Assembly: GCA_964343705.1 (NCBI GenBank)
Contig: CAYFJX010000008.1
Span: 447-64,446 of the forward strand
DNA from: an uncultured Methanosarcinales archaeon
Lineage (GTDB): Archaea; Nanobdellota; Nanobdellia; Woesearchaeales; UBA12501
Reading direction: 5' to 3'
DNA: 64,000 nt
Every line of letters starts with the position of its first letter. The first letter of the stretch is position 1. This document shows positions 5,501 to 42,962 of this stretch, piece after piece. The notes beneath the pieces are model-generated. The model was not told the DNA's origin, searched no databases, and saw nothing but the letters and a program-made list of their open reading frames with translations. The translations under genes were made by a program, and so were the position numbers.

Positions 5501-7495
5501 ATGATAAAAGCAGAAGCAATGTCCAAGGTTTCAATAGTATGCCCAAAAACATACCTTGAAAAAGTAATCAGCGCATTATACGAGCTGGGAGCATGCCATA
5601 TTGAAGAACACTCAAAAACAGAAGAGATGGATATTGGCAAACCACTGCAAAAAGCAGAAAAACTTGCAGAAATTCTTGTAAAAATCCGTGCCCTTATTTC
5701 TCAGTTGAAAATTGAAAAGAAACACGTTTCTATAAAACGAAAAAGTTTGCTAGAAAAAGATTATTATGAAATTGGTAAACAAGCTCGTGGAATATATAAT
5801 GATGTTGTTGAGCACACTGAGACCATAAAAAGCGCAAATGAAAAAATTACTGAAATTGAGGAAAAAGTGCATGTACTACAAACACTTCGCTCACTACACA
5901 TTTCTCAACAATTATTGCAAGAATCCAACTATCTTGCGCACCTTATCGGATCAGTTGACTTACCTTGCGACTTGCCAAAGTTAAGAAATGAATTAAACAA
6001 AGTCACAGAAGAGTATGAAATCATAATGCACAAAAATGAAGCAGGACAGAAAATGCTTATTGCCTTGTATATGCACAAGGAAAACAGAGCAGGCCTTAAC
6101 GAGGTCCTTGCAAGCCAGGGTTTTACCGAAGTAAATATCACTCCTGCTTTGGAAAGCAAGAAAAAAATTGACCATCAAGTTCATGATCTTCACACTGAAC
6201 TAACCACACATTCACAAGCACGAAATAAGGCACAGCTTAAACTTAACAAGCTAAAAAGAGAAAGTGCACACTTTCTTGTTGAAAATGAGCAACTCCTAAC
6301 TGAAGAGACAAAAAAAGCAGAGATCCCTCTTAAGTTTGGAGAAACAAAAAAAGCATTTACAGTAAAAGGATGGGTTCCAACTGCACGAATGGACAAAGTA
6401 AAAAAAGAATTACAAGAAATCACAAAAGGCAACATCCATATTATTGAAGAAGAACCAGGGAAGAAGGATAGTGTGCCAGTTAAGCTTAAACATAACTTTT
6501 TGGTAAAACCTTATGAGTTTTTCCTTAAACTATATGAACTGCCAAATTACAAAGAATTTGACCCATCTATTTTGATGTTTATTACATTCCCACTCTTTTT
6601 TGGATTTATGCTGGGAGATGTAGGATATGGAGTTATAACACTCATACTATTTAGCTTATTAAAATTAAAGCTACCTCATGCAAAAGCACTCTTAAACATC
6701 ATGATCTTTGCTTCAATTGTGACGATCATATTCGGGGTTGGCTTTGGCGAATACTTTGGTTTTGAACATGTAAGTTATGAAACAGGTAAAGAACTTTGTC
6801 AAAACACAGGTGTATGTCTACCAGTACACGAGTTAGAATCACATGGTGTAACAAAAAAAGTTGCAGACTTCCCACGATTATTTAACAGAGTGCACTCACA
6901 CATGAATATTGGAGGGTTTGAAGTATTATCTGTGTTAGTTATTGGTGCAATAGTAGGATTCATACATCTTAACTTTGCGCTTCTAGTTGGATTCTTTAAT
7001 ATCCTTGCAACACATGGATTTATGCATGCATTCCTTGAAAAAATTAGTTGGATGGTTATGGAAGCAGGAGTTATTATTGTTGCAATGGCCTATGCAGGTG
7101 CAACACCCTTGACACCCCTAACTGGTTTTACATTGATGGGGATGGGTATTGTAATGATTTACATGGGTGAAGGAGCAAAAGGACTTGTTGAGATACCTGC
7201 AATTTTTAGTAATATGCTATCTTACATGCGTCTTGGCGCAGTAGGTCTTGCCTCAGTTGGTTTAGCTGTGGTCGTTAATGAAAACTTAGCAATGCCTTTT
7301 ATTGAAAAAGGAGGAGTTCACATCTTTTTAGCAATCATCATACTCACTATTGGACATGTAATTAATATTGGCCTTGGAGTGCTTGGACCATTCCTGCACT
7401 CATTGAGGCTACATTACGTGGAGTTCTTCTCTAAGTTCTATCATGGCGGTGGAAAAGCATATCAACCGTTTGGAGAACAAAAAGAAGACCAATAA
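5501..7495 (+). CDS. atpI: A-type ATP synthase subunit I (a-subunit homologue)
   Basis: 664 aa; coiled soluble N-half plus membrane C-half with MLSYMRLGAVGLASVGLA (essential Arg) and LRLHYVEFFSKFY.GGGKAY.PF. Confidence 0.9.
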   Translation: MIKAEAMSKVSIVCPKTYLEKVISALYELGACHIEEHSKTEEMDIGKPLQKAEKLAEILVKIRALISQLKIEKKHVSIKRKSLLEKDYYEIGKQARGIYNDVVEHTETIKSANEKITEIEEKVHVLQTLRSLHISQQLLQESNYLAHLIGSVDLPCDLPKLRNELNKVTEEYEIIMHKNEAGQKMLIALYMHKENRAGLNEVLASQGFTEVNITPALESKKKIDHQVHDLHTELTTHSQARNKAQLKLNKLKRESAHFLVENEQLLTEETKKAEIPLKFGETKKAFTVKGWVPTARMDKVKKELQEITKGNIHIIEEEPGKKDSVPVKLKHNFLVKPYEFFLKLYELPNYKEFDPSILMFITFPLFFGFMLGDVGYGVITLILFSLLKLKLPHAKALLNIMIFASIVTIIFGVGFGEYFGFEHVSYETGKELCQNTGVCLPVHELESHGVTKKVADFPRLFNRVHSHMNIGGFEVLSVLVIGAIVGFIHLNFALLVGFFNILATHGFMHAFLEKISWMVMEAGVIIVAMAYAGATPLTPLTGFTLMGMGIVMIYMGEGAKGLVEIPAIFSNMLSYMRLGAVGLASVGLAVVVNENLAMPFIEKGGVHIFLAIIILTIGHVINIGLGVLGPFLHSLRLHYVEFFSKFYHGGGKAYQPFGEQKEDQ

Positions 7496-15417: not shown

Positions 15418-15603
15418 TGTAAGACCTGAGATAAGTGAATATATAAAACTTGTTGTGCCATTACTGCGGAGCCAAACTGTCCGCATCCAGCGGACAGTAA
15501 ATACGCCAGAGCACCTGCATAAATCGGTGCTCTGGCTGACAAACTCCAAGGCAGTAATGACCAAGCACATACCTTTATATACCCCTGATGTTCTGTCAAG
15601 GGT

Positions 15604-17572: not shown

Positions 17573-17806
17573 TTACATTTTTTCGAGTGCTTCCTTCATC
17601 ATAGGAAGTACTGCTTCAGCTTCTTCTTGAGTCATACGTCCAAGCTTTGCAAACTTAAGCTCGCCAGCTACGTTCTTGTTTTCCCTGCTGATTTGCATTT
17701 TTTTAACGCCCTCGTTATAAGAGCAGATTGCTACTGTAATCTTTGTTTTTTCGAATTCTACTGACTTTTCAAAGAGTCGTTGGTCTAAATTTGGGTCAAA
17801 TGGCAT
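17573..17806 (-). CDS. small cytoplasmic protein; weak resemblance to PC4/YdbC-type ssDNA-binding fold
   Basis: 77 aa from MPFDPNLDQ. Its first 17 nt are duplicated 124 nt upstream across an inserted element (see findings). Functional call is tentative. Confidence 0.5.
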   Translation of the reverse strand: MPFDPNLDQRLFEKSVEFEKTKITVAICSYNEGVKKMQISRENKNVAGELKFAKLGRMTQEEAEAVLPMMKEALEKM

Positions 17807-17930
17807 ATAGATCATCTCCGTGTTTGGTTATCAATTGAGTCGCACATCCAAGGTGAGTTCCGAATCCAATGAGGAACTCGCCCACATTTTGAGTCTTTTG
17901 TGTAACAAAAGACTTTGGGTCAAATGGCAT
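17790..17930 (-). mobile_element. 107-nt hairpin element flanked by a 17-bp direct duplication (TTTGGGTCAAATGGCAT)
   Basis: Direct repeats at 17790-17806 and 17914-17930. The insert is homologous to the one at 41312-41421, with compensatory changes in two stems. Confidence 0.55.
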
Positions 17931-18535
17931 TTTTTGTTTCCTCCGTCGTTATGATACCTAGGAAATATTTGTACTCAGTTATATAGGTTTCGATAAAATG
18001 CTCCCACTGGACACAATTTTCGTCAAAGACGAAAATGCGCATCTGAGCTTTGCTCAGATTGCACTGGACATACATGGATGGCTTTGCCTGATAAGTATTA
18101 TTTCTGCCCGAAAAGTAGCATATCTTTGGATTTTGTCAGAGTTTAACATCGCGATTAAGAGAAGTTCGGTTTTGAGGCAACCCACACCAAAAAAATTTGG
18201 GAAACATTCGGGAAATCGCTTGGCGATTTAGGCGAAGCCGACCGAATTTTCCTGATAATTCCTGTTAGTTTCTTTTCCCATACGTAGTGTGGGAAAATTT
18301 CGTCCGAAAAGTTTTTTCGGGGGCGTTCCATCTTTGGAGCGAATAGCGACTATCCAGAACATGTATCTAAGGGCACACTCATTTTACATCTATAATCTGG
18401 GAAATCTTTTACTGCTATTCAAGGGGTTCGGGGGCGAAGAAGAGCAGACTAATTATCTCTTTTAGGCGGTAATAAATGCAAAGCTTTATATAGTTAAATC
18501 CTATTTTTAGGATAAATCAAACCTAAAAAAGAAAA

Positions 18536-19147
18536 ATGCTAAAAAAATCATATCAAGTCTTGGATGTCTTTGTAACTAATCCAACTATTACATACTTATT
18601 TGGGGATGTTAAAGGGCGGATTGGTAGCAAATCAGAAAGTTATACCTACAATTCTCTTAAATCATTTGTAAAAGAAGGAATATTAACCAAAGATAAAAGA
18701 GGGGGCGTAGCAATTTACAAGATCACAGATTCCCCTAAAGCAATTTCGTTCTTATCAATGGCTGCTGAATACAAAGCATGGAATAGAAAAGGCATTCCAA
18801 TTGATAATATTATAGAAGTTATCAAAAAAGCGAAAATTAATTTTTTGACTTTGTTAATTACTGGAAGTTATGTTAAAGGAAAGCAAACAGCAAAATCTGA
18901 TCTTGATCTTGTTTTAATTGTTCCAAGTGATGTTAAGAAAATAACAGCAAGATTAAAACAATTTTGTGAGTTGAGTATTCCTGAAATTCATCTGTATGTG
19001 TTTACTGATGATGAGTTCAAGCAGATGCTACTAGATGAGAAACATAACTACGGGAAGGAAATAGTTAAAAATAATCTCGTCTTTTTTGGAGCAGAAGTCT
19101 ATTATAAAATAATGTTTGAGGCAATGAAAAATGGGTTCACTTACTGA
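18536..19147 (+). CDS. minimal nucleotidyltransferase (MNT) with N-terminal wHTH
   Basis: 203 aa; LITGSYVKGKQTAKSDLDLVLIV NTase motif; overlaps the downstream HEPN gene by 17 nt. Confidence 0.8.
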   Translation: MLKKSYQVLDVFVTNPTITYLFGDVKGRIGSKSESYTYNSLKSFVKEGILTKDKRGGVAIYKITDSPKAISFLSMAAEYKAWNRKGIPIDNIIEVIKKAKINFLTLLITGSYVKGKQTAKSDLDLVLIVPSDVKKITARLKQFCELSIPEIHLYVFTDDEFKQMLLDEKHNYGKEIVKNNLVFFGAEVYYKIMFEAMKNGFTY

Positions 19148-19616
19148 AATATATCTGGATAGATCAAATAATGAAGTCATGATAGCAGAATCTCTCAAGA
19201 GATTAACTGAGAAAGAGGAAGATAAAGAAAATTTTGATCTTCCAGAAGATATCAGCTTTTACAGCGCAGTTATTTCTCATTCGTATTATGCAATATTTTA
19301 TGCAGCAAAGGCTCTTCTTTTAACGAAGAAAATTGATACAAAAGCTCCAGAAGTTCATAAGAAAACATTTGAAGAATTTAAGAAACATTTTGTTGATACC
19401 AAAGAATTGGATATCAATTTTCTGAAAATATATAAGAAAATGATAGTCAGAGCTGATGAACTCTTACAAATATTCAAAGATGAGAAATGGAAGCGTGGTC
19501 ATTTTACTTATCAAACGATACCTCAAGCAAATAAAGAGCCTGCTGAAGATTCATTGAAAAATGCAAAATTTTTCGTCTCAAACATAATGAAGGTTGTAAA
19601 AGAATCCAAGAAGTAA
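19131..19616 (+). CDS. HEPN domain protein
   Basis: 161 aa; SHSYYAIFYAAKALLLTKKIDTKAPEVHKKTFEEF is a typical HEPN helix pair; coupled to the MNT. Confidence 0.7.
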   Translation: MGSLTEIYLDRSNNEVMIAESLKRLTEKEEDKENFDLPEDISFYSAVISHSYYAIFYAAKALLLTKKIDTKAPEVHKKTFEEFKKHFVDTKELDINFLKIYKKMIVRADELLQIFKDEKWKRGHFTYQTIPQANKEPAEDSLKNAKFFVSNIMKVVKESKK

Positions 19617-20144
19617 TATTTTTCTTTACAATTATCCCACATAAATTGAAAGAACTTTCTGTATCCATCAGCTAGCATTTTACTTTTGAGAATGAATTGT
19701 AATGGTTCTTCGTATAATTCTCCTGGCTTTACACCAACAAAAGTAACGACATAATCTCCAAAAATATCAACAGCAGTAGGACTTGAATATTCTTTAGGTA
19801 AGAAGCGATAAGGTTTTCCTACTAATTTAAGAATTTCTGGCTTTTCTTTCTTTACTTCGTGATCAAAGAGATGCATAAATTTTATTCCTCGTTTTTTTCT
19901 TTCTTTATCAAAATGTCTAAGATAATGTTGCAATCTCGGATCAAGCCAGAATGCTTTTGTTCCCATAAAATACACTGTTTGTTTTCTTTCCCGATTTAAC
20001 GAAAGCGGCACCGTTAAGAAGTAGAGGTTTACCGTCGTAGAATACGTAAGGGCAATGTAAAAATTGGATATAATTCCTGTTAAGTTCGTTTTCCGTTACG
20101 AAGTCCGGAAAACCTGCGTCCGCAGAGTAAAATATGAGTTCCAA
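19523..20144 (-). pseudogene. N-terminally truncated, frameshifted TrmB-family regulator remnant
   Basis: The 162-aa ORF aligns with the C-terminal effector half of the TrmB-like protein at 21664-22419 (FMHLFDHEVK.., YRFLPKEY.., GYRKFFQFMW vs SYRDYFNHLW). No HTH part is present. The upstream piece is in another frame and runs into the 183-bp repeat. The 3' end overruns the HEPN gene. Confidence 0.45.
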
Positions 20145-20303
20145 TTAATTCGAGGCGAAGCCGAGTCATACTGTCCGTTAGGACTGGGGGTCTGTGTTCA
20201 ATAGAAAAAGCGTAGCGTTACATCAAGAACAGGAAGAAAGGGCAATTTCTATTTTATCCAGCACGAAGTGCTACCCAGTTAAAGAGGTTAGGGGGTCGCT
20301 GTT
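20121..20303. repeat. 183-bp direct repeat, copy 1
   Basis: Identical by eye to 26043-26225; contains boxes GGGGGTCTGTG, AGGGCAATTTCT and GGGGGTCGCTG, plus GAA-triloop mini-hairpins (GGCGAAGCC, GCACGAAGTGC). Confidence 0.9.
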
Positions 20304-20362
20304 CAGCTTTAGTAAGCTTTTTAATGTTCTACATTTATCTTTAGTAAAAAGGGGTCGCTGAT

Positions 20363-21667
20363 ATGAAAGAATCCGAAATACTTGAGTTCAAGAAGTCAAC
20401 AGGAGAGTTGAAAGAGGCTGTTATTTCAATAGGTTCCATTCTCAATAAACATCAAAGAGGTGATCTTTACTTTGGCGTTAGAAATGATGGCAAAGTTATT
20501 GGTCAAACTGTTACAGAAAAAACCATTAGAGATATTTCTAAATCCATTTCTGACCACATTGAACCAAAGATTTTTCCTAGAATTAAAGAAGTTGTTTTGG
20601 AAGGAAAGAAGTGTATCCATGTTGAATTTTCTGGTAACAACATTCCCTATTACGCTTTTGGTCGGGCTTACATTAGGGTAGGCGATGAAGACAAACAATT
20701 AAGTGCAAAAGAATTGGAAAAGATGATTCTTGATAAGAATAAGGAGAAAATGGCTTGGGATAAAGAAGTCTGTAAAGAAGCCAAAGTAAGCGACATTAAT
20801 GTTGAAAAATTGAAGTGGTTTCTGAAGAAAGCAGGAAAGAGTTTTGATAATGTTGAAAACTCATTGAAAAAGTTAAGTCTTCTTTCAAAAGGAAAACTGC
20901 TTAACACTGCTGTGATTCTATTTGCTAAAAATCCAGAAAACTTTTTCCCAAATGCAAAATTACGATGTGCAGTTTTTGGGAAAACAACAGCAGTAACTAT
21001 TGATATGCAACAGTTTACAGGTGATCTGTTTACTCTGATTGAGAAAGCTGAAAAATACATTCTTGAAAATATCCACATAGGAATGAGAGTTGAAGGGATG
21101 TACAGGGTTGATGTTCCAGAAATAGATAAAGAAGCTTTTAGGGAAGCAATCATTAATGCTTTTTGCCACAGGAATTATTATCTTTATGATTCAGTGAATA
21201 TTGCCGTCTTTAAAGATAGGTTGGAAATTAGAAATCCTGGCTTACTTTATGGTGGATTGACAATTGAAAGAATCAAAAATGAAGAAGTTTCTGAGCGAAG
21301 AAATGAATTACTTGCTGAGATGTTTCACCAAATTCATTTCGTGGAGAGATGGGGTAGAGGCATTAGTCTGATTCTATCAAAAGAGCCAAAAACAGAATTT
21401 AAAGAAGTGGGAAGACAGTTTATTGTTAAATTCAAGAGGAAAGTACAAATTGTAGAAACTACCCAAAAGACTACCCAAAAGACTACCCAAAAGATAATTT
21501 CTCTGATCAAAGAAAAACCGGCAATTACAAGAGAAGAATTAGCTAAAATTCTTAATATCTCATCAGATGGTGTAAAATATCATCTTAATAATTTAAAGAA
21601 AAGTGGTGTTTTGAAAAGGGTTGGTGGAAGGAAGGAGGGCCATTGGGAGATTGTGGAGAAAAATTAG
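20363..21667 (+). CDS. AlbA_2/Schlafen-type (divergent AAA, AAA_4) ATP-binding transcriptional regulator
   Basis: 434 aa; N-terminal ESEILEFKKS box, central HATPase_c_4-like region (AINAFCHRNY, RNPG), C-terminal wHTH (ITREELAKILNISSDGVKYHLNNLKKSGVLKRVG). Confidence 0.8.
   Translation: MKESEILEFKKSTGELKEAVISIGSILNKHQRGDLYFGVRNDGKVIGQTVTEKTIRDISKSISDHIEPKIFPRIKEVVLEGKKCIHVEFSGNNIPYYAFGRAYIRVGDEDKQLSAKELEKMILDKNKEKMAWDKEVCKEAKVSDINVEKLKWFLKKAGKSFDNVENSLKKLSLLSKGKLLNTAVILFAKNPENFFPNAKLRCAVFGKTTAVTIDMQQFTGDLFTLIEKAEKYILENIHIGMRVEGMYRVDVPEIDKEAFREAIINAFCHRNYYLYDSVNIAVFKDRLEIRNPGLLYGGLTIERIKNEEVSERRNELLAEMFHQIHFVERWGRGISLILSKEPKTEFKEVGRQFIVKFKRKVQIVETTQKTTQKTTQKIISLIKEKPAITREELAKILNISSDGVKYHLNNLKKSGVLKRVGGRKEGHWEIVEKN
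21458..21493 (+). repeat. 3 x 12-bp tandem repeat (ACTACCCAAAAG) encoding TTQK x3 linker
   Basis: Seen directly in DNA and in the protein (TTQKTTQKTTQK), between the ATPase-like part and the wHTH. Confidence 0.8.
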
Positions 21668-22419
21668 GGTTTTGCTGTTTTCCATAGGTGATTAAAATAA
21701 TCCCTATAGGATTGTGCTACTTCTTTACTTCTGACGACAATTCCGATTGGTTCAGAAGACCACATTATTGTTGCGACTTTATCACCATAAATTTGAATAG
21801 ATGTTAAAGATGCAAATGAAGCAGGAAGAATTCTAACTGGCGTATATTTATATTGCTTCAATTGTTTTGCTCTGAGAATTGATTTTTTTGGGAAAATGAA
21901 TTTCATCGTTTGTTTTTGCTTTACTCTCTTATTGTGAAAAGCCGGAAGGGAATATTTCATGTGATACTTCATTGATTCAGCATCTTCAGCATACGCTCCA
22001 ATAACAAGAATTTCTTTTTTATCCTCTAACCAGTCCTGAAATATAGACTTTAGTCCTTTATTTCCCTTGTAGAGGGTAACTTCTTGAGGAGCTTTGCCTA
22101 ATTTTCGTTTATCTTCAAGCTGAGGAATAAGCTGTAAGAGTTCTTGTTTCTCTTTCTGAATTTTATCTTCTTTTTTTTCTATCACATCAATAAAATTCTT
22201 GGCATTAGCTGCCTCAAAATATTTTCTATTGGCTTTAATGACATGCGAAACAAGACCTTTGTCAATCAACTTATCTAACGTATCATAAACTGCTCCCCTG
22301 TGGAGTTCAATTTTCTTTAATATTTCTCCTGCTGTAACAGACCCTAATTCTAACAGAGCAAGGTATACTTTAATCTCGTTTCCTGTCAATCCAACTTCTT
22401 CTAGTATTTTGGTGTTCAT
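21664..22419 (-). CDS. TrmB-family transcriptional regulator
   Basis: 251 aa; N-terminal wHTH LTGNEIKVYLALLELGSVTAGEILKKIELHRGAVYDTLDKLIDKGLV, coiled linker, C-terminal effector domain. Confidence 0.8.
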   Translation of the reverse strand: MNTKILEEVGLTGNEIKVYLALLELGSVTAGEILKKIELHRGAVYDTLDKLIDKGLVSHVIKANRKYFEAANAKNFIDVIEKKEDKIQKEKQELLQLIPQLEDKRKLGKAPQEVTLYKGNKGLKSIFQDWLEDKKEILVIGAYAEDAESMKYHMKYSLPAFHNKRVKQKQTMKFIFPKKSILRAKQLKQYKYTPVRILPASFASLTSIQIYGDKVATIMWSSEPIGIVVRSKEVAQSYRDYFNHLWKTAKP

Positions 22420-22518
22420 ATTAACTCTATTGGTTGATGTTTTATTTAAATCTTTCTACTGTCATACTGCAATAGGACGACATAATTATATATAACAACG
22501 AAGTACCACTTTACCGTT

Positions 22519-23424
22519 ATGAATATAAGAGATAGACTAAATGGCTTATTTGGAATTAATATTCCAGAAGTCTATGGTGGAGAAGAACTCTCATTGCCGG
22601 ATATCGTAGAAGTAGTTGTAAATCTATCTTCGCAAGACCTAAGTGCAGCAGCTATGCTTGGATCGCATATGCGAGTAGCTCATTACATCAACCATTTTGG
22701 AACAGAAGAACAAAAAGAGAAGTTTCTATCAAAACTAGCAAGTGGAGAAATTATTGGGGCGCATGCACGGACAGAACACGAAAGCACAGTAAGAGCTACA
22801 AAAGAAAAGGATGGATATGTACTTGATGGCATAAAACCCTACGTTACTAATGCAGAGGAAGCCGGACTATTTGTAGTTACAGCCAATAGCAATAACAACA
22901 TCTTTCTTGTAGAGAGAGATACTCCTGATTTTGTTGTGGGTAAAGACATTCCTCGCACAGGTGTTTTAGGGACAAGTCTTTGTAGTGTTTATCTGAACGA
23001 TTGTAAAGTTTCTCCAAATGCCCTACTTAGTGGGACTGAAGGTCAAGCAAAAGCATATTTAGAGGAAACTAAGAAACTTGCACTCATTAATTATGTTGCA
23101 CGTACAATTGGAACACTAAAAACTCTAAAATCAATTGTTAAAGATGCGCCACCAAATGCTATTCCAAACCATGACGATCTAGTGAGAAGAGTCAACTCAC
23201 GTATCGGTGTTGCAGAGGATCTAGTTGGAGAATCAATTAGGAAGTATCAAGAATCTGATCCATCACTTGTATCTTTTCTGTCAGCAGGACGTTCTGGTTG
23301 TGTTGATTCTTGTATGAAAACACTTACTGAAATGCTATGCAGTTATACGTACACAAATATAACATTTGCTCAATTTTACCGAGATGTACCATCTCTTGCA
23401 GTAATTGGAGGTGGCCGAAGATGA
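22519..23424 (+). CDS. acyl-CoA dehydrogenase-fold protein, short and lacking the canonical C-terminal catalytic Glu
   Basis: 301 aa; ACAD middle/C-terminal blocks (GINIPEVYGGEELS, GSHMRVAHYINHFGTEEQKEKFLSKLASGEIIGA, DGYVLDGIKPYVTNA). About 55 N-terminal residues of a typical ACAD are missing. The Y-E-G-T position reads IGGG. Confidence 0.65.
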   Translation: MNIRDRLNGLFGINIPEVYGGEELSLPDIVEVVVNLSSQDLSAAAMLGSHMRVAHYINHFGTEEQKEKFLSKLASGEIIGAHARTEHESTVRATKEKDGYVLDGIKPYVTNAEEAGLFVVTANSNNNIFLVERDTPDFVVGKDIPRTGVLGTSLCSVYLNDCKVSPNALLSGTEGQAKAYLEETKKLALINYVARTIGTLKTLKSIVKDAPPNAIPNHDDLVRRVNSRIGVAEDLVGESIRKYQESDPSLVSFLSAGRSGCVDSCMKTLTEMLCSYTYTNITFAQFYRDVPSLAVIGGGRR

Positions 23425-24341
23425 TTCTTGAATCAATATTGGATAATCTAACGCCAGTTTCTCTACTTCATTTACCAAGAGAAGAAGGCTCGGCTGATAT
23501 TTACGTAGCGTTGTTACATACTTTGCCAATGGGAAGCCACAAAATTCTTGCAGCAAAATCCATGATAGAAGATGCAGAACACACACATACAATAACAGAC
23601 GAAACTGTATTTGTAGATCAATCTTCAGGTAACGCTGCTTCTGCCGAAGCTTTTGTTTGTGCAACAAAAGGATACAGGTATGAGTGTTTTATGCCAGAAA
23701 GCATGGCTCCTGAAAAAATACAACAAGTTCTCGCCTGTGGGGGAATTATTCACTTTACTCCGGCGGAAGAATTTGTTGATAGCGCAAAGAAAATAGCAGA
23801 GGCATACTGTGAAGAAAATCCAGAAAGGAGGATATATCTTGATCAAAGTGTAAATCCTGCAAGCCCTAGAGGATACGAACCGATTGGAAGACAATTTATT
23901 AGTTTGCTACCATCAATTGATGCTTTTGTCTCTGGTGGTGGAACATATGGTACAATAACTGGGATTTCACGTGTCTTGAAGAAACATGATGAAAGCATTC
24001 AAGTTACTTGTGTTGAATCTGTCTATGCTCCTCGTCTTCATTCTCGCAGAAATAATTATTCCATGCCCAAATTTAGAGGACAAAAGATTACTGGATTTGG
24101 GGGAGAAGTTCTGCAAAGCAATGCTCAGCCAGAATTATATGATAATGTTGTTTTGACAGACGAAGAAAAAGCGATTCAACATCTCCGTAAGCTTCACAGA
24201 TCTGGTCTTCTTGTTGGTAAAAGTTCGGCAGCAGTTCTTCAAGTAGCACAAGATGTAGCAAGAAATCTGGGAGATGGTAAAATTGTAGTGACAAATACAT
24301 ACGACTCGTTCTCAAAAATGATTTCTGAAGGAATCTACTAA
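23421..24341 (+). CDS. PLP-dependent cysteine synthase/threonine dehydratase-fold enzyme (fold type II)
   Basis: 306 aa from MILESILD (ATGA overlap with the upstream stop). GSHKILAAKSMI matches the GS.K.R.A..MI PLP-lysine motif; Gly-rich SGGGTYGTITG phosphate loop. Confidence 0.7.
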   Translation: MILESILDNLTPVSLLHLPREEGSADIYVALLHTLPMGSHKILAAKSMIEDAEHTHTITDETVFVDQSSGNAASAEAFVCATKGYRYECFMPESMAPEKIQQVLACGGIIHFTPAEEFVDSAKKIAEAYCEENPERRIYLDQSVNPASPRGYEPIGRQFISLLPSIDAFVSGGGTYGTITGISRVLKKHDESIQVTCVESVYAPRLHSRRNNYSMPKFRGQKITGFGGEVLQSNAQPELYDNVVLTDEEKAIQHLRKLHRSGLLVGKSSAAVLQVAQDVARNLGDGKIVVTNTYDSFSKMISEGIY

Positions 24342-24353
24342 AGAGGATAAAAA

Positions 24354-25820
24354 ATGTGCGGCATTGCAGGAATTATCGGAGACAATTCTGACAAGGAAGC
24401 TGAAGGCTTAATTAGTAAGCTTTATCATAGAGGGCCAGACGACCAAGGCTATTGGAATAATGATAGCGCTCTTCTAGCTTCTACAAGGTTGATGATAACT
24501 AGTGATCAAGACGAAGGAGTACAACCATTCGTCAAAGGAGATTATGTGCTAGTCTTTAATGGTGAAATATTCAATTACAGATCATTAGGAACACATAAAA
24601 CAGATACAGAAGTGTTGATGGACGGATTGATCCACGAGGGAAATTCTTTTCTTCAAAAATTGGATGGACAGTTTGCTTTAGCATTTTATGATGCTAAACA
24701 TGATAAGATGTTGCTTGCTAGAGATCATTTGGGAAGAATGCCTCTATTCTATACTCTTTCGGAAGATGGACGATTTATTTTTGCTTCTGAAGTGAAAGCA
24801 ATATTTTCGGTTGGTGTGCAAGCTGAATTAAAAGAGGATGAAAATTTTAGATACCAGTGGAGCAATCAGATACCAACGACAAATGAGACAATATTTGAAA
24901 ATGTTTACCAAGTTCTGCCGGGTGAATTTTTGGTCATTAACAGGGGAGTTGGTAGGAGACAGTATTATACGCTTACACAACCACCTATTTTAGATAAACC
25001 TGAATCGTATTTTCTAGAACGGCTCCCAAGTATTTTGGAGGGTTCTGTTGCGAGAGAATTGACAGGGAATGCAAAAATAGGATTATCTTTCTCTGGAGGT
25101 GTAGATTCAACCATAGTGCTTAAGGTTTTAAGTGAAAGACTTCCGTATCGTCCTGTAGCAATCGCTGCTTTTCGTGATGAAGAACATTTTGATGTTGTAA
25201 GAGAAGCTTCTGAATTGTATGGAGCAGATCTTGTTGAACTAAAACTTGACAGAGGAATAGTAAAAGATCTCCCTAGAGTTCTTTATGCGACAGAAACGTA
25301 TGGTATGGGACATGGAATTGAATTACTTCATTATGCGATATCAAAGGAAGCTAAGAAACGAGGAGTTAAAGTGTTTATGTGTGGAGCAGGAATAGATGAA
25401 GAATTTTTAGGATATGAACATTTTTCGGATTCTCCGTCAGCTGAAGAAAGATTTAATGAGACAAGTCAATTGTTTAATTCACATTTATATGTTAGAGATA
25501 GGACTAGAATGGCTCATGGAATTGAAGCTAGGTGTCCATTTGTTAATAGGCAGTTAGTTGAATTTGCGTTAAGAGTGCCGGTGCAGTATTGTGTTAATGA
25601 ATCTGGGGCGAAGCAGGTCATGAGAAAAGCAGCTGGTACTTTTTTACCAGAAAAGTTTGCTAATTTGCCAAAAATTCAGTCTTACACTCACTCAAATATT
25701 TTTAGTTTGATACAGGAAGAGTTAGGAGTTAGAACAAATGAAGAATATATGGAGATATGTCATGATTTGGTAAAGCAGATGTTTGTAGATGGAAAAGATG
25801 TTGATGCAGTGAAATTATAA
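24354..25820 (+). CDS. asparagine synthase (glutamine-hydrolysing)-like amidotransferase
   Basis: 488 aa; N-terminal nucleophile MCGIAGI, Ntn-GATase blocks, PP-loop SFSGGVDS. Confidence 0.85.
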   Translation: MCGIAGIIGDNSDKEAEGLISKLYHRGPDDQGYWNNDSALLASTRLMITSDQDEGVQPFVKGDYVLVFNGEIFNYRSLGTHKTDTEVLMDGLIHEGNSFLQKLDGQFALAFYDAKHDKMLLARDHLGRMPLFYTLSEDGRFIFASEVKAIFSVGVQAELKEDENFRYQWSNQIPTTNETIFENVYQVLPGEFLVINRGVGRRQYYTLTQPPILDKPESYFLERLPSILEGSVARELTGNAKIGLSFSGGVDSTIVLKVLSERLPYRPVAIAAFRDEEHFDVVREASELYGADLVELKLDRGIVKDLPRVLYATETYGMGHGIELLHYAISKEAKKRGVKVFMCGAGIDEEFLGYEHFSDSPSAEERFNETSQLFNSHLYVRDRTRMAHGIEARCPFVNRQLVEFALRVPVQYCVNESGAKQVMRKAAGTFLPEKFANLPKIQSYTHSNIFSLIQEELGVRTNEEYMEICHDLVKQMFVDGKDVDAVKL

Positions 25821-26042
25821 AGCGACCCCCCATTTTAGTTTTTAGAAATTGCCCTATTAAATTAAATTTCTTTTTCATAGAAAAAGTCTAAATGTGCGTC
25901 AGCACCACAGACCCCCTCTTTTTTTAGAACTCAAATTTTATTGAAACTAACATCCGAATTCAGATGTTAAGTTCGTCGAGTTACGAGTGACCGAAGGGAA
26001 CGGAGTGGCGAGACCAAGATTTAACTCCGAAGGAGATTAAAT

Positions 26043-26225
26043 CGCAGAGTAAAATATGAGTTCCAATTAATTCGAGGCGAAGCCGAGTCATACTGTCCGT
26101 TAGGACTGGGGGTCTGTGTTCAATAGAAAAAGCGTAGCGTTACATCAAGAACAGGAAGAAAGGGCAATTTCTATTTTATCCAGCACGAAGTGCTACCCAG
26201 TTAAAGAGGTTAGGGGGTCGCTGTT
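26043..26225. repeat. 183-bp direct repeat, copy 2
   Basis: Identical by eye to 20121-20303, offset 5922 bp. Weaker homology continues upstream (TGTTAAGTTCGT at about 20088 and about 25963). Confidence 0.9.
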
Positions 26226-26277
26226 TTTGGAAAATTTAGTAGTAAAATATATAAATATCAAAGAACTTTAGGTTGAT

Positions 26278-26424
26278 ATGGAAACAGTTACAATCCCAAA
26301 AGAAGAATACGAAATGCTCAAGCACAAAGCCGAAGTAGATGAGGATTTATTAGTTTCATTAGTTAGAGGGCTTGAGGATATTAAAGCTGGTCGCATTAAG
26401 CCATGGAAAGGCTTCACAAATTAA
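26278..26424 (+). CDS. possible 48-aa antitoxin-like protein (METVTIPKEEYEMLKHKAEVDEDLLVSLVRGLEDIKAGRIKPW...)
   Basis: Short ORF below the track cutoff. Composition resembles small archaeal antitoxins, but it is convergent with, not upstream of, the RelE-like gene. Confidence 0.3.
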   Translation: METVTIPKEEYEMLKHKAEVDEDLLVSLVRGLEDIKAGRIKPWKGFTN

Positions 26425-26728
26425 GCTTCTTTTTAATCTCTTCTTGATAGTGTGGAATGAGTGATTTTATCTTGTCAATAGCATCCTGTTGATCTTTCTT
26501 GGTGCTGATTGTTATCACAAAGACAACAACGTACTCCTCATACACAAGATAATAAACACGATAATTCATAATTTTCTTCTCTCTAAAGAAGGGATAACTT
26601 AATTGCTTTCCAACAAATGGATTATCCTCAAGTTGATCAATTTCTTTGGCGATTGCTCGTTGCAACTGTTTATCTAACTTTTTGTATCGCCTATCAAATT
26701 CATCTGTAGTGAAGATTTTGTAACCCAT
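26414..26728 (-). CDS. RelE/ParE-superfamily toxin
   Basis: 104 aa; F.KRYKKL...L...I...I..L..NPF.GK.L, then YRVYYLV and VVVFVITISTKKD, the usual RelE/StbE pattern. Confidence 0.7.
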   Translation of the reverse strand: MGYKIFTTDEFDRRYKKLDKQLQRAIAKEIDQLEDNPFVGKQLSYPFFREKKIMNYRVYYLVYEEYVVVFVITISTKKDQQDAIDKIKSLIPHYQEEIKKKLNL

Positions 26729-26832
26729 TTTTAATGGAAAAGATTGAATTGATATAAAAGTTCTTTGGTAGTGTTTAAGCTGTTGCTGTACCCCACATTA
26801 TCTTAAAAAATTGATCGTACGATTCAGCAGCT

Positions 26833-27162
26833 TTGACAGCAGAACAGATAGCTGAATTTTTTGGTCAGATTGTTGAAGTCAGAAAAAAATATCCAAAAGA
26901 AGTTTTAGAAATAAAACCTCATGGAAATTTTGGACCAAGACCTGGATCAAAAGGAGAGACTTTAGCAAATGAAAATAGTTACTGTCCTGCTGGAAGGAAT
27001 TTAGTTACAATTGATCCACAGAATAGAGTTTATGGCTGTCCATTCTCTATGCATCCAAACAGTGTAATTGGTAGATATGAAAATGGACAAATAGTAATAG
27101 ACAAAGAATTGCTTGGTGGAAGAAGAAATACCTGTATTACGCATCTTTTGACATCAAGCTAG
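26833..27162 (+). pseudogene. C-terminal fragment of a radical-SAM/SPASM-domain protein
   Basis: Only the SPASM-like Cys region is present (YCPAGRNLVTIDPQNRVYGCPFS). No CxxxCxxC core and no ATG (the track start is TTG). Confidence 0.5.
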
Positions 27163-27433
27163 TTATTTCTTTTTTTTCAATTCTTGCCCATCTCATAATT
27201 CGCCCTTTCTCGATTGGATTTAATTCGTGTTAAATCCTACCGACTACGAAGTGGGAGGTACAAGGTTTAAGTTCCGAAGGAACATTAAACCGCAGAGTAA
27301 AATTTAAGTTTACATCAATCACCCGAAGGGTTCATATATTTTAGGACTCTCTCACGTTTTACATAAATTTAGAACATCAAGGGCAATCTCTACTTACAGT
27401 TTTTACATCCGTTTATTTCGGCACAGAGTTTTT

Positions 27434-28580
27434 TTAGGGAGAACTTCTTTTAATTAAGGTATTTGTGTGATTTTGATAAATGTATTTTTTTGGGGTTAGA
27501 ATAGTGGTTGTTTTTTGTGTTTATTTTGTTTTTATTTGTTGTTTTTTTACTTTTTTAAGAGTGCTTTCGCTAGGTTGAGAGTAGGAATCGTAGTCGGTGG
27601 ATGTTGTATGCTGCGTATTGGAATATTTGTTGTATGAATACTCTTCCTGTTGTGGTGAGTTTTGTTCGTCCTCCTTTGAAAACTCTACTAATTGTTGCTA
27701 AAGGATGTTCTCCTCGACAACGTGATTTTGTTATTCTTTTGTTCCGTAGTTTTTGTTTGGGTGTTAGGTTGCCTCTTTTCATTGTTGCGTTACCTTTTGC
27801 TTTTGTTGGTGACCCACTGTAACAACGATCACGTTTTATTATTTCATCTGGCTTTGCCAGATCAATATGCCCATCAAAAACTTTTGCAGTGGCAACTGCA
27901 AGCTTTGTCACTAGCTTAGTTCCTTCATCAACTTTGAAATGAGTTTTGTAACCAAAGAAACTTTTCTTTCCTTTCTTTGTCCATGTCGCGTCTTTATTAC
28001 GACTTGTTTTTGCTTCCCTACCACGATTTATTTTATCACTACTCTGCTTTTTACCAGGATCAGCAACAACAAAAGTCGCATCCTGAATTTTACCCTCTTT
28101 CAAAATAATATTGTTTTTAGCAAATTCTTTTTGGAGTGCACTCCAAAAAGAGTCAATCAAACCTTCTTCCTGAAGCCACTCACGATAAGCCCAAATAGTT
28201 TTAGCATCAGGAATATGAGCATAACCCAAAAAATTTCGAAAATCAAACCTGTTATAACACTGATATTCAAGCTCCTCATCACTCACATTATGCCACGCCT
28301 GAAGACACAATACTTTAAGCATTACAACATGAGGTATCGGACGACGACCAGCTTTTTCAGGAGTCCTATCAGGAAGAGAACCAGCAAGAGCCCCCCAATC
28401 AACCAAATCATGCACCTCCTGCAAAACACACTTACGCTTAACAACCTCCTTAAACTTCTCACTCAAAACAAAATCAACCAAAGTCCCCATAAAAAAACAC
28501 CTCACTTTTTTATAAACTATCGACGACAAAACAAGTATAAATAATTTACTATTTCAAACAATTAATAGAAATTCTCTAAA
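27434..28580 (-). mobile_element. IS5-family insertion sequence (about 1.15 kb)
   Basis: Imperfect terminal inverted repeats TTAGGGAGAACTTCTTTTAATT (about 27434-27455) and AATTAATAGAAATTCTCTAA (about 28561-28580) enclose one DDE transposase gene. Boundaries are approximate. Confidence 0.5.
27570..28529 (-). CDS. IS5-family DDE transposase (DUF772 N-terminal + DDE_Tnp_1)
   Basis: GRRPIPHVVMLKVLCLQAWHNVSDEELEYQCYNRFDFRNFLG (InsH N-terminal), DATFVVAD, DATWTKKGKKSFFGYKTHFKVDEGTKLV..A.VFDG, AAYNIHRL. The likely true start is Met14 (MGTLVDF, about 28490). Confidence 0.8.
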   Translation of the reverse strand: MSSIVYKKVRCFFMGTLVDFVLSEKFKEVVKRKCVLQEVHDLVDWGALAGSLPDRTPEKAGRRPIPHVVMLKVLCLQAWHNVSDEELEYQCYNRFDFRNFLGYAHIPDAKTIWAYREWLQEEGLIDSFWSALQKEFAKNNIILKEGKIQDATFVVADPGKKQSSDKINRGREAKTSRNKDATWTKKGKKSFFGYKTHFKVDEGTKLVTKLAVATAKVFDGHIDLAKPDEIIKRDRCYSGSPTKAKGNATMKRGNLTPKQKLRNKRITKSRCRGEHPLATISRVFKGGRTKLTTTGRVFIQQIFQYAAYNIHRLRFLLST

Positions 28581-28599
28581 GATAACTTTGAATTGGTGG

Positions 28600-28935
28600 A
28601 TAGCTTAGGGGGGACTTTTTATGTGCCTTTTAAAAACAACAGTAAAGGCTCTGGAAATGGTATGATTTGGAAGATAAATGTATCATTATTTCATGCTGAA
28701 TAATGAAGAATATTTACAGCACTATCACTCAAGAAGCAACGCAGAAAGTACAGTAAACATGATAAAAAGTAAATTCGGAGATAGAGTAAGAAGTAAACTA
28801 TGGACAGCACAGATTAATGAAGTGCTTTGTAAAATCATAGCCCATAATATCTGTTGTGTAATAATGGAAATGAACGAATTAGGATTAGAAAGCAATTTTT
28901 GCCCGAATAGTCAAGTAGTTGCCCGAAATGTCTAA
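28600..28935 (+). pseudogene. 3' remnant of a second transposase gene, frameshifted and truncated by the IS5-like insertion
   Basis: YVPFKNNSKGSGNGMIWK in one frame continues as MYHYFMLNNEEYLQHYHSRSNAESTVNMIKSKFGDRVRSK...AHNICC in another. This is a transposase C-terminal pattern, and the fragment begins right at the IS end. Confidence 0.5.
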
Positions 28936-29006
28936 CTTTTCATGGACTTATCGGGCAAAGCCTACATGGACGCAAAGCTTATATAGCTCGAAACCCTTAC
29001 GGAAAT

Positions 29007-29765
29007 ATGGTAAAAAGGTTAAAAAAAGAGCAGGTTGAGAATATATTTAGGCTTACAAAAAAAGGCATATCACTAAATAGAATAGAGAAGATTACTGGTT
29101 TAAAAAAGACAACCATCTATTATCATTTTAGAAAGATTAAGCCTAAAACAACCCAACCAATAATAGTTAATTCAGAAAATGATGAGTTGATAGGTGAAGT
29201 TGTAGGCTTATTTGCAGGAGATGGATCTTGTGATATAATGAAAAAAGGCAAATATAGAGTGAGACTCCATTTTAATATAACTGAAAAAGAATTTGTTAGA
29301 AAACTAAATGAAGATGTCCTAAAAAACATTTTTGGAAAAGAGCCCATGGTTTTTAGACAGGAAAATAGATTAAATCTTTGCTATTACTCAAAAAACATTC
29401 ATTTGTTACTTAACACTTACCTGACTTGGGATAAGTCAAGGAGAAAAACTTATTCTGTACAATTAAAGACACATAATCACCCCCTGGCTTTTTGTAAAGG
29501 TTTTATAAGAGGTTCTTTAGATAGTGATGGGTGTTTATCTGACAAAAAAATCAGTTTCGCAACAGTGTCACCTGGCTTAAAGGACAACATATCTTTTTTT
29601 CTGGAACAATTAGACATAAAACATTCAGTAAGAAAATATAAAGAGAAGAGATCAAACAGAAAGGACATTTACCACATTAATGTTATGAGAAAAGAACATG
29701 GTAGATTCATGGACATCATAAAACCAAGGAATATAAAGGGACTGAATGCACCAGCCGAGATTTGA
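29007..29765 (+). CDS. free-standing LAGLIDADG homing endonuclease-like protein with N-terminal HTH
   Basis: 252 aa; two LAGLIDADG motifs (VVGLFAGDGSC and FIRGSLDSDGCL). TTATATA box about 25 nt upstream, so possibly leaderless. The 3' end overlaps tRNA-Gly on the other strand. Confidence 0.8.
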   Translation: MVKRLKKEQVENIFRLTKKGISLNRIEKITGLKKTTIYYHFRKIKPKTTQPIIVNSENDELIGEVVGLFAGDGSCDIMKKGKYRVRLHFNITEKEFVRKLNEDVLKNIFGKEPMVFRQENRLNLCYYSKNIHLLLNTYLTWDKSRRKTYSVQLKTHNHPLAFCKGFIRGSLDSDGCLSDKKISFATVSPGLKDNISFFLEQLDIKHSVRKYKEKRSNRKDIYHINVMRKEHGRFMDIIKPRNIKGLNAPAEI

Positions 29766-29845
29766 ATTTCCGAACGCTCAGTCCCAAAACGTTTCTCGGA
29801 CCGCCGGCTTGGAAGGCCAGAATCCTACCATTAGACTACTGGTGC
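29747..29845 (-). tRNA. tRNA-Gly(UCC) with a roughly 28-nt non-canonical intron between the T-stem 5' strand and the T-loop
   Basis: GCACCAG/CTGGTGC acceptor; anticodon arm CTGGC-CTTCCAA-GCCGG. T-arm CCGAG...TTCAAAT-CTCGG is interrupted by AAACGTTTTGGGACTGAGCGTTCGGAAA (about 29767-29794). Mature length about 71 nt. Confidence 0.75.
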
Positions 29846-41298: not shown

Positions 41299-41434
41299 AT
41301 TTAGAAATCTGAAAAAGGACACTAACAACCAAGTGGGCTTTTAAGATTGCACTTCCAAGATGTACTCTGACTGAAAGGAAGAGTACGGCCACATTTTGTC
41401 TCTTTTGTGTTAACAAAAGAGATTTAGAAATCTG
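41299..41434 (-). mobile_element. 110-nt hairpin element flanked by a 13-bp direct duplication (ATTTAGAAATCTG) at the rnhB stop codon
   Basis: Repeats at 41299-41311 and 41422-41434; the insert is homologous to 17807-17913. Confidence 0.55.
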
Positions 41435-42086
41435 CAAGACTCTTTTGATCTTTCTTTGCCTTTTGTTTAGTGTATGACGACCAGCTTTTACGCATGATAT
41501 GAGGATATTCTTCAAAGTGATCCTCAACAAACGATTTAGTTAAGGGATCTGCTGCGTAACCACTCCCAAAATTAATACCTACCTGGGCTTTTATCTTCTC
41601 TATTTCCTCATCCCGAACAACTTTTGCAATAATAGATGCCGCAGCCACAACAACATGATTAACATCAGCCTTGTGTTCTGCAATAACTTCTGTCTTCTTT
41701 GCATCCCCTTCAAGCTTGTTTACTACATATTCTTTGTAGGCTCTCACATTTGGACTGGGACAGTCGAGAATCACCTTGTCAGGCTTTAATTCATTGACAA
41801 ATTGGGCTGATTTCATTGCTTCAAGCCAGTTAAGATTAATGCTTGAAGACAAAACAGCTGCGTCCACCTCTTCTGGAGGAATAATAAGAACTCTGAAACT
41901 GTGAGCAAGCTTTCGAATTGTTGAACTAAGATTTTTTCGTTTAGCAGGCGTAAGCAATTTAGAATCTTTGACACCTGCTTTTTTAAGTTTAGCCTCGTCT
42001 TTTTCATCAATAACAACAGCAACCATGACTAAGGGCCCAATTACAGGACCACGACCAGCTTCTTCAACGCCACAGACAAGTGCCAT
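41424..42086 (-). CDS. rnhB: ribonuclease HII
   Basis: 220 aa from MALVCGVEEAGRGPVIGPLV (DEAGRG-type active site) and later GSGYAAD. The 34 upstream codons of the track ORF are unlike RNase HII. Confidence 0.9.
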   Translation of the reverse strand: MALVCGVEEAGRGPVIGPLVMVAVVIDEKDEAKLKKAGVKDSKLLTPAKRKNLSSTIRKLAHSFRVLIIPPEEVDAAVLSSSINLNWLEAMKSAQFVNELKPDKVILDCPSPNVRAYKEYVVNKLEGDAKKTEVIAEHKADVNHVVVAAASIIAKVVRDEEIEKIKAQVGINFGSGYAADPLTKSFVEDHFEEYPHIMRKSWSSYTKQKAKKDQKSLADF

Positions 42087-42166
42087 AGTGTTAACACTAA
42101 GAAGTCTGTTTATATAGTTTATTCTTTTACAGGCTTGGCATTGTTTGTCTTTCTGAGGGATAGTGC

Positions 42167-42903: not shown

Positions 42904-42962
42904 ATAATATTCTTGTCAGAAAAAGATTTACTTTATAAATGTTCCTGTTTAAAAAAATAATA

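Follow-up and report, generated by a model that had tools for sequence, protein, structure and literature searches.

Two copies of a small non-coding element with two hairpins lie in the 64-kb stretch of DNA analysed here (the window), and they are regarded, with moderate confidence that applies jointly to the whole of the best explanation, as belonging to a non-autonomous family of small mobile elements in Woesearchaeota-like DPANN archaea. What is conserved measures about 73 nt: first comes a terminal hairpin of 9 bp, then a spacer of 13 nt (CAAAATGTGGGC), then a second hairpin of 7 bp whose loop has 11 nt (and which in some copies contains one bulged base), and last a tail (ACCTTGGATGTG). 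This unit encodes nothing. The original prediction had given the element a length of about 110 nt, which has to be shortened, as the last 35–37 nt differ completely between the two window copies. The family comprises seven copies, resulting from six independent insertion events in five lineages, and five of the copies lie beyond the window, in related metagenomic contigs. Insertion at gene boundaries, with the target duplicated, leaves start and stop codons intact.

Copy 1 is situated at the start of a gene for a 77-aa protein (MPFDPNLDQ...; 17573–17806, minus strand), which belongs to no Pfam family and whose start codon (ATG at 17806) is inside the duplicated target. The whole insert occupies positions 17807–17913 on the minus strand, between perfect 17-bp direct repeats. 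Reading along that strand, the upstream repeat ATGCCATTTGACCCAAA (17914–17930), identical to the downstream repeat at 17 of 17 positions, is adjoined directly by hairpin 1, GTCTTTTGT-TAC-ACAAAAGAC (17893–17913). There follow the conserved single-stranded spacer TCAAAATGTGGGC (17880–17892), hairpin 2, made up of GAGTTCC, the 11-nt loop TCATTGGATTC and GGAACTC (17855–17879), and the conserved tail ACCTTGGATGTGC (17842–17854), where the ~73-nt core stops. A post-core segment of 35 nt (17807–17841), for which the other copies show no conservation, leads to the downstream repeat (17790–17806), where the 77-aa gene has its functional start; the last 14 nt of this segment are identical in the orthologous L022 copy described below. 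The upstream repeat is a relic gene start: its ATG opens a 44-aa open reading frame that runs into the element, and it has kept the original GGAGG ribosome-binding site of the 77-aa gene. The post-core segment supplies a GGAG to the real ATG, at a distance of 9 nt and not the 10 nt that had been reported, whereas the 17-bp repeats containing the start codon and the complete downstream reading frame are present as described.

Copy 2 (whole insert 41312–41421, minus strand, between 13-bp direct repeats) is situated at the end of the gene for RNase HII (220 aa; 41424–42086, minus strand), the stop codon of which is inside the duplicated target. The upstream repeat, CAGATTTCTAAAT on the minus strand (41422–41434), includes this stop codon; the downstream repeat is at 41299–41311, and the plus-strand sequence of both is ATTTAGAAATCTG. 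The 73-nt core (41349–41421, minus strand) has, as had been claimed for it, the same order of parts as copy 1 and stems that differ by compensated changes. Hairpin 1 is CTCTTTTGT-TAAC-ACAAAAGAG, the spacer is ACAAAATGTGGCC, hairpin 2 is GTACTCT/TCCTTTCAGTC/AGAGTAC and the tail is ATCTTGGAAGTGC. The post-core segment of 37 nt (41312–41348) is unrelated to that of copy 1. One sequence in the RNase HII target, CAAAAGAG, matches the 3′ arm of hairpin 1 exactly.

Covariance-model E-values for the two window copies are 1e-15 to 1e-20. In the flanking-repeat test, the observed score was reached by none of 500 shuffles for copy 1 and by one of 500 for copy 2; over the four sites where such repeats could be tested, each observed score was reached by 0–1 of 500 shuffles. 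Sites lacking the element were found for both insertions. For copy 1, these are four homologues of the 77-aa gene (L036, L037, L038 and L041; 65–77% identity), which have a single ATGCCATTTGA... and no element upstream, and for copy 2, two RNase HII homologues (L043 and L051; 67–68% identity), in which the stop codon leads straight into an A-rich spacer. As there are empty sites as well as significant flanking repeats, both window copies are true insertions.

Covariance models R1 (built from three sequences) and R2 were used to find the other copies of the family. With filters off, nothing better than E = 0.3 was seen as a third copy in the 64-kb window, which thus contains exactly two. Matches to sequences that had not been used for training were L022B (84.6 bits; L022:1844–1916), L042 (66.9 bits), L024 (47.2 bits) and L043 (16.2 bits). 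L024 is a GC-rich member upstream of a tRNA-Glu gene on an unrelated metagenome contig. The weak match in L043 lies 8 nt downstream of a tRNA gene and on inspection proves to be built in the same way, its 9-bp hairpin being separated by 13 nt of spacer from a hairpin of 7/8 bp with an 11-nt loop (TCGCTACGCTC), which a tail follows. The further copies and the empty sites, whose absence the original prediction would have taken as refutation, were thus both found, the former numbering five when the orthologous copy L022A is included. There are two copies in 64 kb in the window, three in 8 kb in the L022 lineage, and one in 11 kb in L043; about 50 kb from more distant relatives contained none. Every copy lies between genes, at a gene end, and three adjoin tRNA genes; clear flanking repeats are present in only four of the seven copies, and L024 and L043 have none. 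An alternative 5′ flank in L021, GCCAGACGAACTTGCG, occurs nowhere else in the data examined.

Simpler searches were made in several collections. The pattern CAAAATGTGGN{24,34}CTTGGANGTGC gave 14 matches in genome contigs, all of them bacterial, with about 12 expected by chance, and the pattern TTTTGTN{3,5}ACAAAANNNNCAAAATGTGG in metagenome contigs, a collection that evidently does not include the samples with L022 and L042, gave mostly LeuRS coding sequence and chance matches, only L024 being real. Pattern scans of viral contigs gave chance matches only (L015, L052), BLAST with the element against phages and plasmids gave nothing, and a protein search with the concatenated six-frame translation of the element found no matches. 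When a profile of the open TQK...HLGC frame was compared with 1.84 billion representatives, only the window's own 44-aa open reading frame and unrelated low-complexity proteins were recovered. Outside the window, the DNA covered was 8.6 kb to the right, in which no copy is present, and 0.7 kb to the left.

Covariation of the stems, originally described from two copies, becomes stronger with seven sequences (alignment A4, used for the tests of pairing and covariation), as 9 of 16 pairs now have changes on both sides. In this alignment, 93.8% of the cells of both hairpins are paired, compared with 36–58% in slid controls, and the observed covariation was reached by none of 500 shuffles, these controls on seven related sequences being indicative and not probabilities. 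Watson–Crick pairs account for 105 of the 112 stem cells, and there is no G·U pair in any of the seven copies on the strand that reads hairpin 1 first; the only two A·C cells are both in L022A, and on the opposite strand they become G·U. The cores folded as DNA have z-scores of −2.7 to −4.4, and the whole elements with their tails folded as RNA are only modestly stable (z about −2). Hairpins 1 and 2 are unrelated to each other in sequence, and there are T-runs on both strands of hairpin 1. Thus, of the proposal that selection acts on an RNA or single-stranded DNA (ssDNA) structure, the structural part stands, and the strictly Watson–Crick compensation leans towards a DNA hairpin or ssDNA rather than RNA; the substitutions in L022A keep an RNA of the opposite strand possible. 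A scan of the window with Rfam 15 at gathering thresholds found only two tRNAs, and permissive Rfam scans of the element gave matches of at most 17 bits against cut-offs of 57–60. Bulge–helix–bulge introns, C/D or H/ACA sRNAs, group II intron domains, attC sites and CRISPR repeats were each rejected, as inspection by eye found their defining motifs to be absent.

The target duplications had been noted as being long and variable, in a manner unlike that of DDE-transposon MITEs, and their range is wider than first seen: 13 bp in copy 2, 17 bp in copy 1, 21 bp in L042 and at least 46 bp in L022B. In L022B the post-core sequence is a 46-bp duplicate of the 5′ flank, identical at 39 of 46 positions (reached by 0 of 500 shuffles), and both duplicates encode the glycosyltransferase C-terminus WERTIVQI(N/D)RVLSRY-stop. 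Terminal inverted repeats are absent from every copy, and no inverted match exists between the hairpin-1 end and the ACCTTGGATGTG/post-core end. In three of the four datable insertions, the hairpin-1 end abuts the duplication precisely, and the tail end is followed by 7–37 nt of unrelated filler (35 nt in copy 1, 37 nt in copy 2, 8 nt in L022B and 7 nt in L042); L042 has an extra 6 nt on the hairpin-1 side as well. Because no more than 6–7 nt separate the core of L042 from its perfect repeats of 21 bp, and because the post-core segments are not conserved, the mobile unit is taken to be the ~73-nt core.

No relationship was found between the post-core segments of copies 1 and 2, or between either of them and the flanks or any other DNA examined. 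That the post-core sequence is decayed target duplication is clearly true for L022B (46 bp) and unsupported for copies 1 and 2, in which the 13- and 17-bp repeats are perfect and the adjacent 35–37 nt have no significant similarity to the flank. Transduction of these segments from a donor locus was rejected, as no source was found in about 200 kb of related DNA. The distance from the end of the core to the end of the downstream repeat is near-constant in four copies (50–54 nt), and this counts against the mechanism that is proposed below.

In the closest relative, L022 (87% protein identity; JGI 3300076214), an element of 107 nt (L022A) is present at the position of copy 1 and in the same orientation; two of the 17 positions in its upstream repeat have decayed, and the ATG there is gone. 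As the filled site is common to L022 and the window, the insertion of copy 1 is older than the split of the two lineages. Between copy 1 and L022A, only 3 of 48 positions have changed in hairpin 1, the spacer and the stems of hairpin 2, compared with 16 of 59 in the loop, tail and post-core segment (structured part versus rest of insert, Fisher p = 0.005); the adjacent gene has changed at 29 of 78 third codon positions. L022A was found by synteny and not by similarity, so the signal of constraint is not an effect of ascertainment. The orthologous inserted copy is under purifying constraint and has been in place since the lineages split, and is not simply decaying. The constraint could reflect either use by the host (as a 5′-UTR or terminator structure, or as a protein-binding site) or homogenisation of copies, and the conservation fits a host-useful motif as well as it fits a selfish element.

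At the RNase HII locus of the L022 lineage (L042; 85% identity), an oppositely oriented element sits at the stop codon; its hairpin 2 is different and its repeats, AAGAGTCTTGCTGATTTCTAG, are 21 bp long and perfect. The cores of copy 2 and L042 are 76% identical, whereas the cores of copy 2 and L022B, which is at another locus, are 85% identical. This reads as the RNase HII stop codon, within a target of about 25 bp, having been hit twice independently and in opposite orientations, in the window and in L042. A single ancestral event followed by inversion was rejected on the basis of these identities, and because no remnants of either arrangement are present.

The DNA that surrounds the two copies is cellular and not viral, as the window carries an A/V-type ATPase operon, an H+-pyrophosphatase, an intein-bearing SMC gene and an intron-containing tRNA, and it also encodes glycosyltransferases and six very large paralogous surface proteins. 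The homologues of the flanking genes that have names are from Woesearchaeota and Nanoarchaeota MAGs, and the window locus is also present in the ENA and Logan assemblies of PRJEB17505; an NCBI contig of 78,206 nt carries an identical RNase HII. A search for a linked reverse transcriptase (RT) or nuclease had been recommended, and the outcome is divided: no RT, HUH enzyme, Cas1 or integrase is encoded in the 64-kb window, but a DGR-like RT is present outside it and LAGLIDADG domains are present within it. The RT gene (L048:1–1326; RVT_1 and HTH_40) lies further along the same contig, some 9 kb to the right of the window, and has the motifs GMPLGNLTSQ and YVDD; its LGNLTSQ corresponds to [LIV]GxxxSQ, the signature of diversity-generating retroelements (DGRs). 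In comparisons with NCBIfam only sub-threshold matches were obtained for it, the best being to group II RT (121 bits, where the cut-off is 300). Neither a TR/VR repeat pair nor a copy of the element is present in the adjoining 10 kb, and the seven mismatches between the L022B duplicates are not adenine-specific. On these two grounds, the element was rejected as a component of a DGR (TR/VR or target hairpin), and the link between RT and element is only that the genome can reverse-transcribe. The LAGLIDADG domains are at 29007–29765, at 42939–43595 and in the SMC intein, and one of them is 1.5 kb from copy 2. An IS5-type DDE transposase is encoded at 27570–28529, and there is also a transposase fragment in the window; the ends of the IS5-type element have no similarity to the two-hairpin element.

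Each of the known families with which the element was compared has some defining feature that was not seen in it, and no described mobile-element or RNA family matches it. SINEs are tRNA-sized structured units with variable target duplications of about 7–20 bp or more, without inverted termini, and with one precise and one variable end. The two-hairpin element is like SINEs in its variable target duplication, its lack of inverted termini and its one precise end, but it has neither an A-rich or LINE-derived tail nor an internal promoter, and its stems are strictly Watson–Crick; no LINE-type RT/endonuclease partner was seen in the part of the contig examined, which has one DGR-like RT. SINE-type retroposition is not known from Archaea. 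The PATEs derived from IS200/IS605, together with REP/REPIN sequences (HUH Y1), are non-coding, are recognised as folded ssDNA hairpins, have covarying stems and lack classical inverted termini. However, they insert 3′ of a fixed tetra- or pentanucleotide without duplication of the target, and their two end hairpins resemble each other, whereas here the duplications are long and the two hairpins are unrelated. The 5′ flanks of the copies (CCAAA, TAAAT, CCAAC and GTAATC) share no common fixed motif, and a PATE or REP was rejected as a candidate because of the long duplications and the lack of a fixed insertion motif.

Among organellar elements, the double-hairpin elements of Allomyces, the GC clusters of yeast and the repetitive hairpin-forming elements of sponges have had both DNA and RNA routes proposed for them, and their mobilising enzyme is unknown (PMC4478555, PMC2800124). 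The likeness lies in their size of tens of nucleotides, in being non-coding and dispersed, in having one or two hairpins with conserved stems and variable loops, and in inserting between genes or at gene ends in compact genomes (PMC4478555, PMC2800124). They differ from the present family in occurring in eukaryotic organelles rather than archaea and in being unrelated to it by sequence. Whereas 13 to at least 46 bp are duplicated here, a putative duplication of 2 nt (AG) is described for GC clusters, and the Allomyces elements lack one altogether (PMC4478555, PMC2800124). Casposons are archaeal, produce target duplications of 14–15 bp and insert at the 3′ ends of genes, leaving the gene intact (PMC4046053, PMC5137440), and in all of archaeal host, long duplication and intact gene the two-hairpin element is like them. 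Unlike the 73-nt unit, which has no terminal inverted repeats and has duplications of 13 to at least 46 bp, casposons are several kb long with terminal inverted repeats and a duplication of fixed length. A casposon derivative was rejected because the duplication length is variable, inverted termini are lacking and Cas1 is absent among the window proteins. A DDE MITE was likewise rejected, as there are no shared terminal inverted repeats and the duplications of 13 to at least 46 bp compare with fixed ones of 2–10 bp; in the search for a parent element, which covered the window, the IS5-type element (27570–28529) showed no similar ends. The MITE-like C/D box sRNA element of Pyrobaculum is archaeal, small, structured and multi-copy, with a small-RNA-like core (PMC6009581), but it has flanking inverted repeats and C/D boxes, and the two-hairpin element has neither. 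Thus, the closest in kind are the organellar hairpin elements (PMC4478555, PMC2800124), the closest in junction anatomy are retroposed small RNAs, and the closest in duplication size and gene-end targeting are the casposons (PMC4046053, PMC5137440).

As a package, the explanation that we favour, at the moderate level of confidence given at the outset, is a one-ended insertion of a folded single strand, nick-primed or nick-joined, with imprecise sealing of the far end. The element would move as a folded single strand, most likely of DNA, its hairpins and spacer being recognised by a trans-acting protein. A nick in the target would be joined to the hairpin-1 end, or would prime copying from it, and the second strand of the target would be opened 13–46 nt away; the far end would be sealed imprecisely and fill-in would produce the duplication. 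These specific steps of one-ended insertion at a widely staggered break are put forward tentatively, with less confidence than the package, and may correspond to the target-primed or staggered-nick insertion that was originally suggested. The DNA version is favoured because the stems are Watson–Crick only. The absence of inverted ends and of a fixed stagger argues against cut-and-paste by a DDE transposase or casposase, and the long duplications argue against ssDNA transposition of the IS200/IS605 type. The enzymes known to act on ssDNA hairpins (IS200/IS605 TnpA and integron integrases) make no target duplication, and the proposed mechanism is for this reason without characterised prokaryotic precedent.

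The anatomy of the junctions can also be read in terms of RNA. In a SINE-like retroposition, the main rival, the transcript would come from the opposite strand with hairpin 1 at the 3′ end of the RNA, where RT would prime on the nicked target; the filler at the 5′ end would be a leader or a product of template jumping, and a variable second-strand nick would give the variable duplication. The duplication lengths of 13 to at least 46 bp, the one precise and one imprecise end and the lack of inverted termini suit this account, as does the RT gene (RVT_1 and HTH_40) on the same contig, and the two stem substitutions of L022A, C·A on the strand with hairpin 1 first and G·U on the opposite one, would leave an RNA of the latter with its structure fully intact. 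Nevertheless, we regard it as unlikely. Its RT carries the LGNLTSQ motif, and DGR RTs are not known to retropose other RNAs; the RT also scores far below the cut-off of every curated RT family. Neither an endonuclease partner nor a 3′ A/T tail nor 5′-truncated copies were seen, and no promoter could be assigned. The absence of G·U among 105 paired cells would be unusual for a selected RNA structure, which is a weak argument. Repair-mediated capture would require no dedicated transposase: a 73-nt hairpin DNA fragment would be patched by microhomology-mediated end joining into staggered or resected breaks. Stalling of forks could cause such breaks, as could the resident LAGLIDADG homing endonucleases, of which there are the three domains noted above, one being close to copy 2. 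Filler of variable length at the junctions is in keeping with this, and so is the presence of CAAAAGAG, the 3′ arm of hairpin 1, in the RNase HII target. The 6–7-nt fillers of L042 seem to resemble the nearby duplicated target (CGAGTTT versus AGAGTCTT, and GATTAC versus GATTTC), like templated insertions, but these resemblances are short. Furthermore, the same unit with the same two ends in six independent events needs a mechanism that defines ends, and LAGLIDADG overhangs are 4 nt long and not 13–46 nt; capture by repair is, in our view, quite improbable.

An ordinary non-autonomous DNA transposon, whether a DDE MITE or a casposon derivative moved by Cas1, would account for the target duplications and empty sites by staggered cuts, and the window does contain an IS5-type transposase and transposase fragments; casposase duplications of 14–15 bp at the 3′ ends of archaeal genes are also of the right order of size (PMC5137440, PMC4046053). 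Against it are the three-fold variation in duplication length (13 to at least 46 bp), the lack of terminal inverted repeats in all copies, the dissimilarity of the IS5-type ends and the absence of a Cas1 gene from the window, and we consider it highly improbable. Even less credence, indeed hardly any, is given to the reading that the motif is not mobile and serves the host in cis-regulation or as a small RNA (a terminator or UTR structure, for example), having arisen or spread by local duplication, with repeats that are incidental. The purifying constraint on the structured parts of the orthologous pair would be expected of such a motif, and the intergenic position of all copies at gene ends, three of them by tRNA genes, and the T-runs on both strands of hairpin 1 would agree with it. 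However, there is presence or absence at sites that are otherwise conserved, four sites have significant direct repeats of the local target sequence, one site is filled in opposite orientations by members of different subfamilies, and there is no match in Rfam. The empty sites and target duplications largely refute the non-mobile reading, and exaptation after insertion is compatible with the favoured one, that is, with one-ended insertion of a folded single strand.

It is conceivable, though we lean towards doubting it, that the family constitutes a class of mobile element hitherto unrecognised in archaea: a 73-nt two-hairpin unit without terminal inverted repeats, copied from a single-stranded intermediate into widely staggered breaks, the copies then being retained by the host as functional structures. 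In that case, archaea would have their first SINE-like retroposon, perhaps with an RT of the DGR type driving it, or else a hairpin-guided ssDNA element with an integrase that duplicates 13–46 bp. In similarly speculative terms, the element could be a small non-autonomous hairpin element whose mechanism is categorically new for Archaea.

DPANN archaea have tiny, gene-dense genomes, and mobile DNA in them has hardly been described. By landing on start and stop codons and duplicating the target, the element leaves genes intact, which illustrates a way for mobile DNA to survive in genomes of this kind. No characterised prokaryotic pathway fits an element that lacks inverted termini, has a single precise end, makes long duplications of variable length and has strictly Watson–Crick covarying hairpins, and the enzyme of the two-hairpin element could reveal a new mechanism of integration, possibly a target-primed one. 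Because one copy has been conserved since the lineages split and one target has been hit twice, the family may show takeover by the host; perhaps, the conserved copy and the twice-hit target represent an early example of exaptation, in which a structured element has been taken over by its host.

There is a second family of structured repeats in this region, which is unrelated in sequence to the 73-nt two-hairpin element and which folds as a three-way junction of about 100-115 nt (RNA-fold z-scores of -8.5 and -10.3). Copies lie at 15460-15558 on the plus strand of the window, at 42155-42268 on the minus strand, and at 5731-5838 (plus strand) of L048, the right-hand extension of the contig. The changes between copies are fully compensated in the outer stem and in both inner hairpins (for example, CTGTCCGC/GCGGACAG versus CTGTCAGC/GCTGACAG), and the constant parts are the TGCATRAATC loop and the CTCCAAGGC motif. 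Comparison with Rfam returned no match for this family. The RNase HII gene has a three-way-junction copy just upstream and copy 2 of the two-hairpin element at its opposite end.

At copy 1 of the two-hairpin element, independent assemblies of the same population (L017, L019, L020 and L021, from PRJEB17505) break within or exactly at hairpin 1, and in the L021 contig the element is preceded by a different 5′ flank of 16 nt, GCCAGACGAACTTGCG, which has no other occurrence in the data. The breaks and the L021 flank point either to further identical copies or to a structural variant located at the edge of the hairpin. About 0.7 kb to the left of window position 1, at the ends of the left-hand extensions L044 and L045, several assemblies stop at the palindrome TATAATGAAGACTCATATGGAGTCTTACTTCATTATA, where another repeated element may end.

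In L022, a close relative, 58 nt separate the element at the copy 1 locus from a tRNA-Gly. The counterpart tRNA in the window (29747-29845, minus strand; intron-containing, detected by Rfam but missed by ARAGORN) lies 12 kb from the element, separated from it by 17930-29750, which looks like an island integrated at the tRNA. This island carries toxin genes (NTase/HEPN and ParE) together with genes for a Schlafen/AlbA_2 ATPase, TrmB, an asparagine synthase and an IS5-type transposase, and its free-standing LAGLIDADG homing-endonuclease-like ORF (29007-29765, plus strand) overlaps the tRNA 3′ end. Within the island, a 183-nt direct repeat (20121-20303 and 26043-26225, 100% identical) encloses 5.9 kb; the pair could be attachment sites flanking a nested integrated element, or could reflect a recent duplication. 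In L036, the homologous locus of the 77-aa gene lacking the element, the tRNA-Gly upstream of that gene appears to contain long insertions, one of which includes a stem (CTTTTG...CAAAAG) that recalls hairpin 1 of the element.

A second free-standing LAGLIDADG ORF lies at 42939-43595 (plus strand), and the SMC gene (35413-40542, minus strand) has an intein bearing a LAGLIDADG domain. On the same contig, about 8.6-10 kb past the right end of the window, a reverse transcriptase gene (L048:1-1326; RVT_1 with a C-terminal HTH_40 domain) is followed by an intron-containing tRNA. The enzyme carries LGNLTSQ and YVDD motifs, which we take to be suggestive of a diversity-generating retroelement; the 10 kb adjacent to the gene contains no TR/VR repeat. 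Seven consecutive minus-strand ORFs of 365 to 1171 aa occupy 43606-62615, of which the six longest (793-1171 aa) are paralogues that have in common modules of about 142 nt and Gly/Ala-rich repeats, with a cupredoxin domain in one of them; these six are probably surface proteins.
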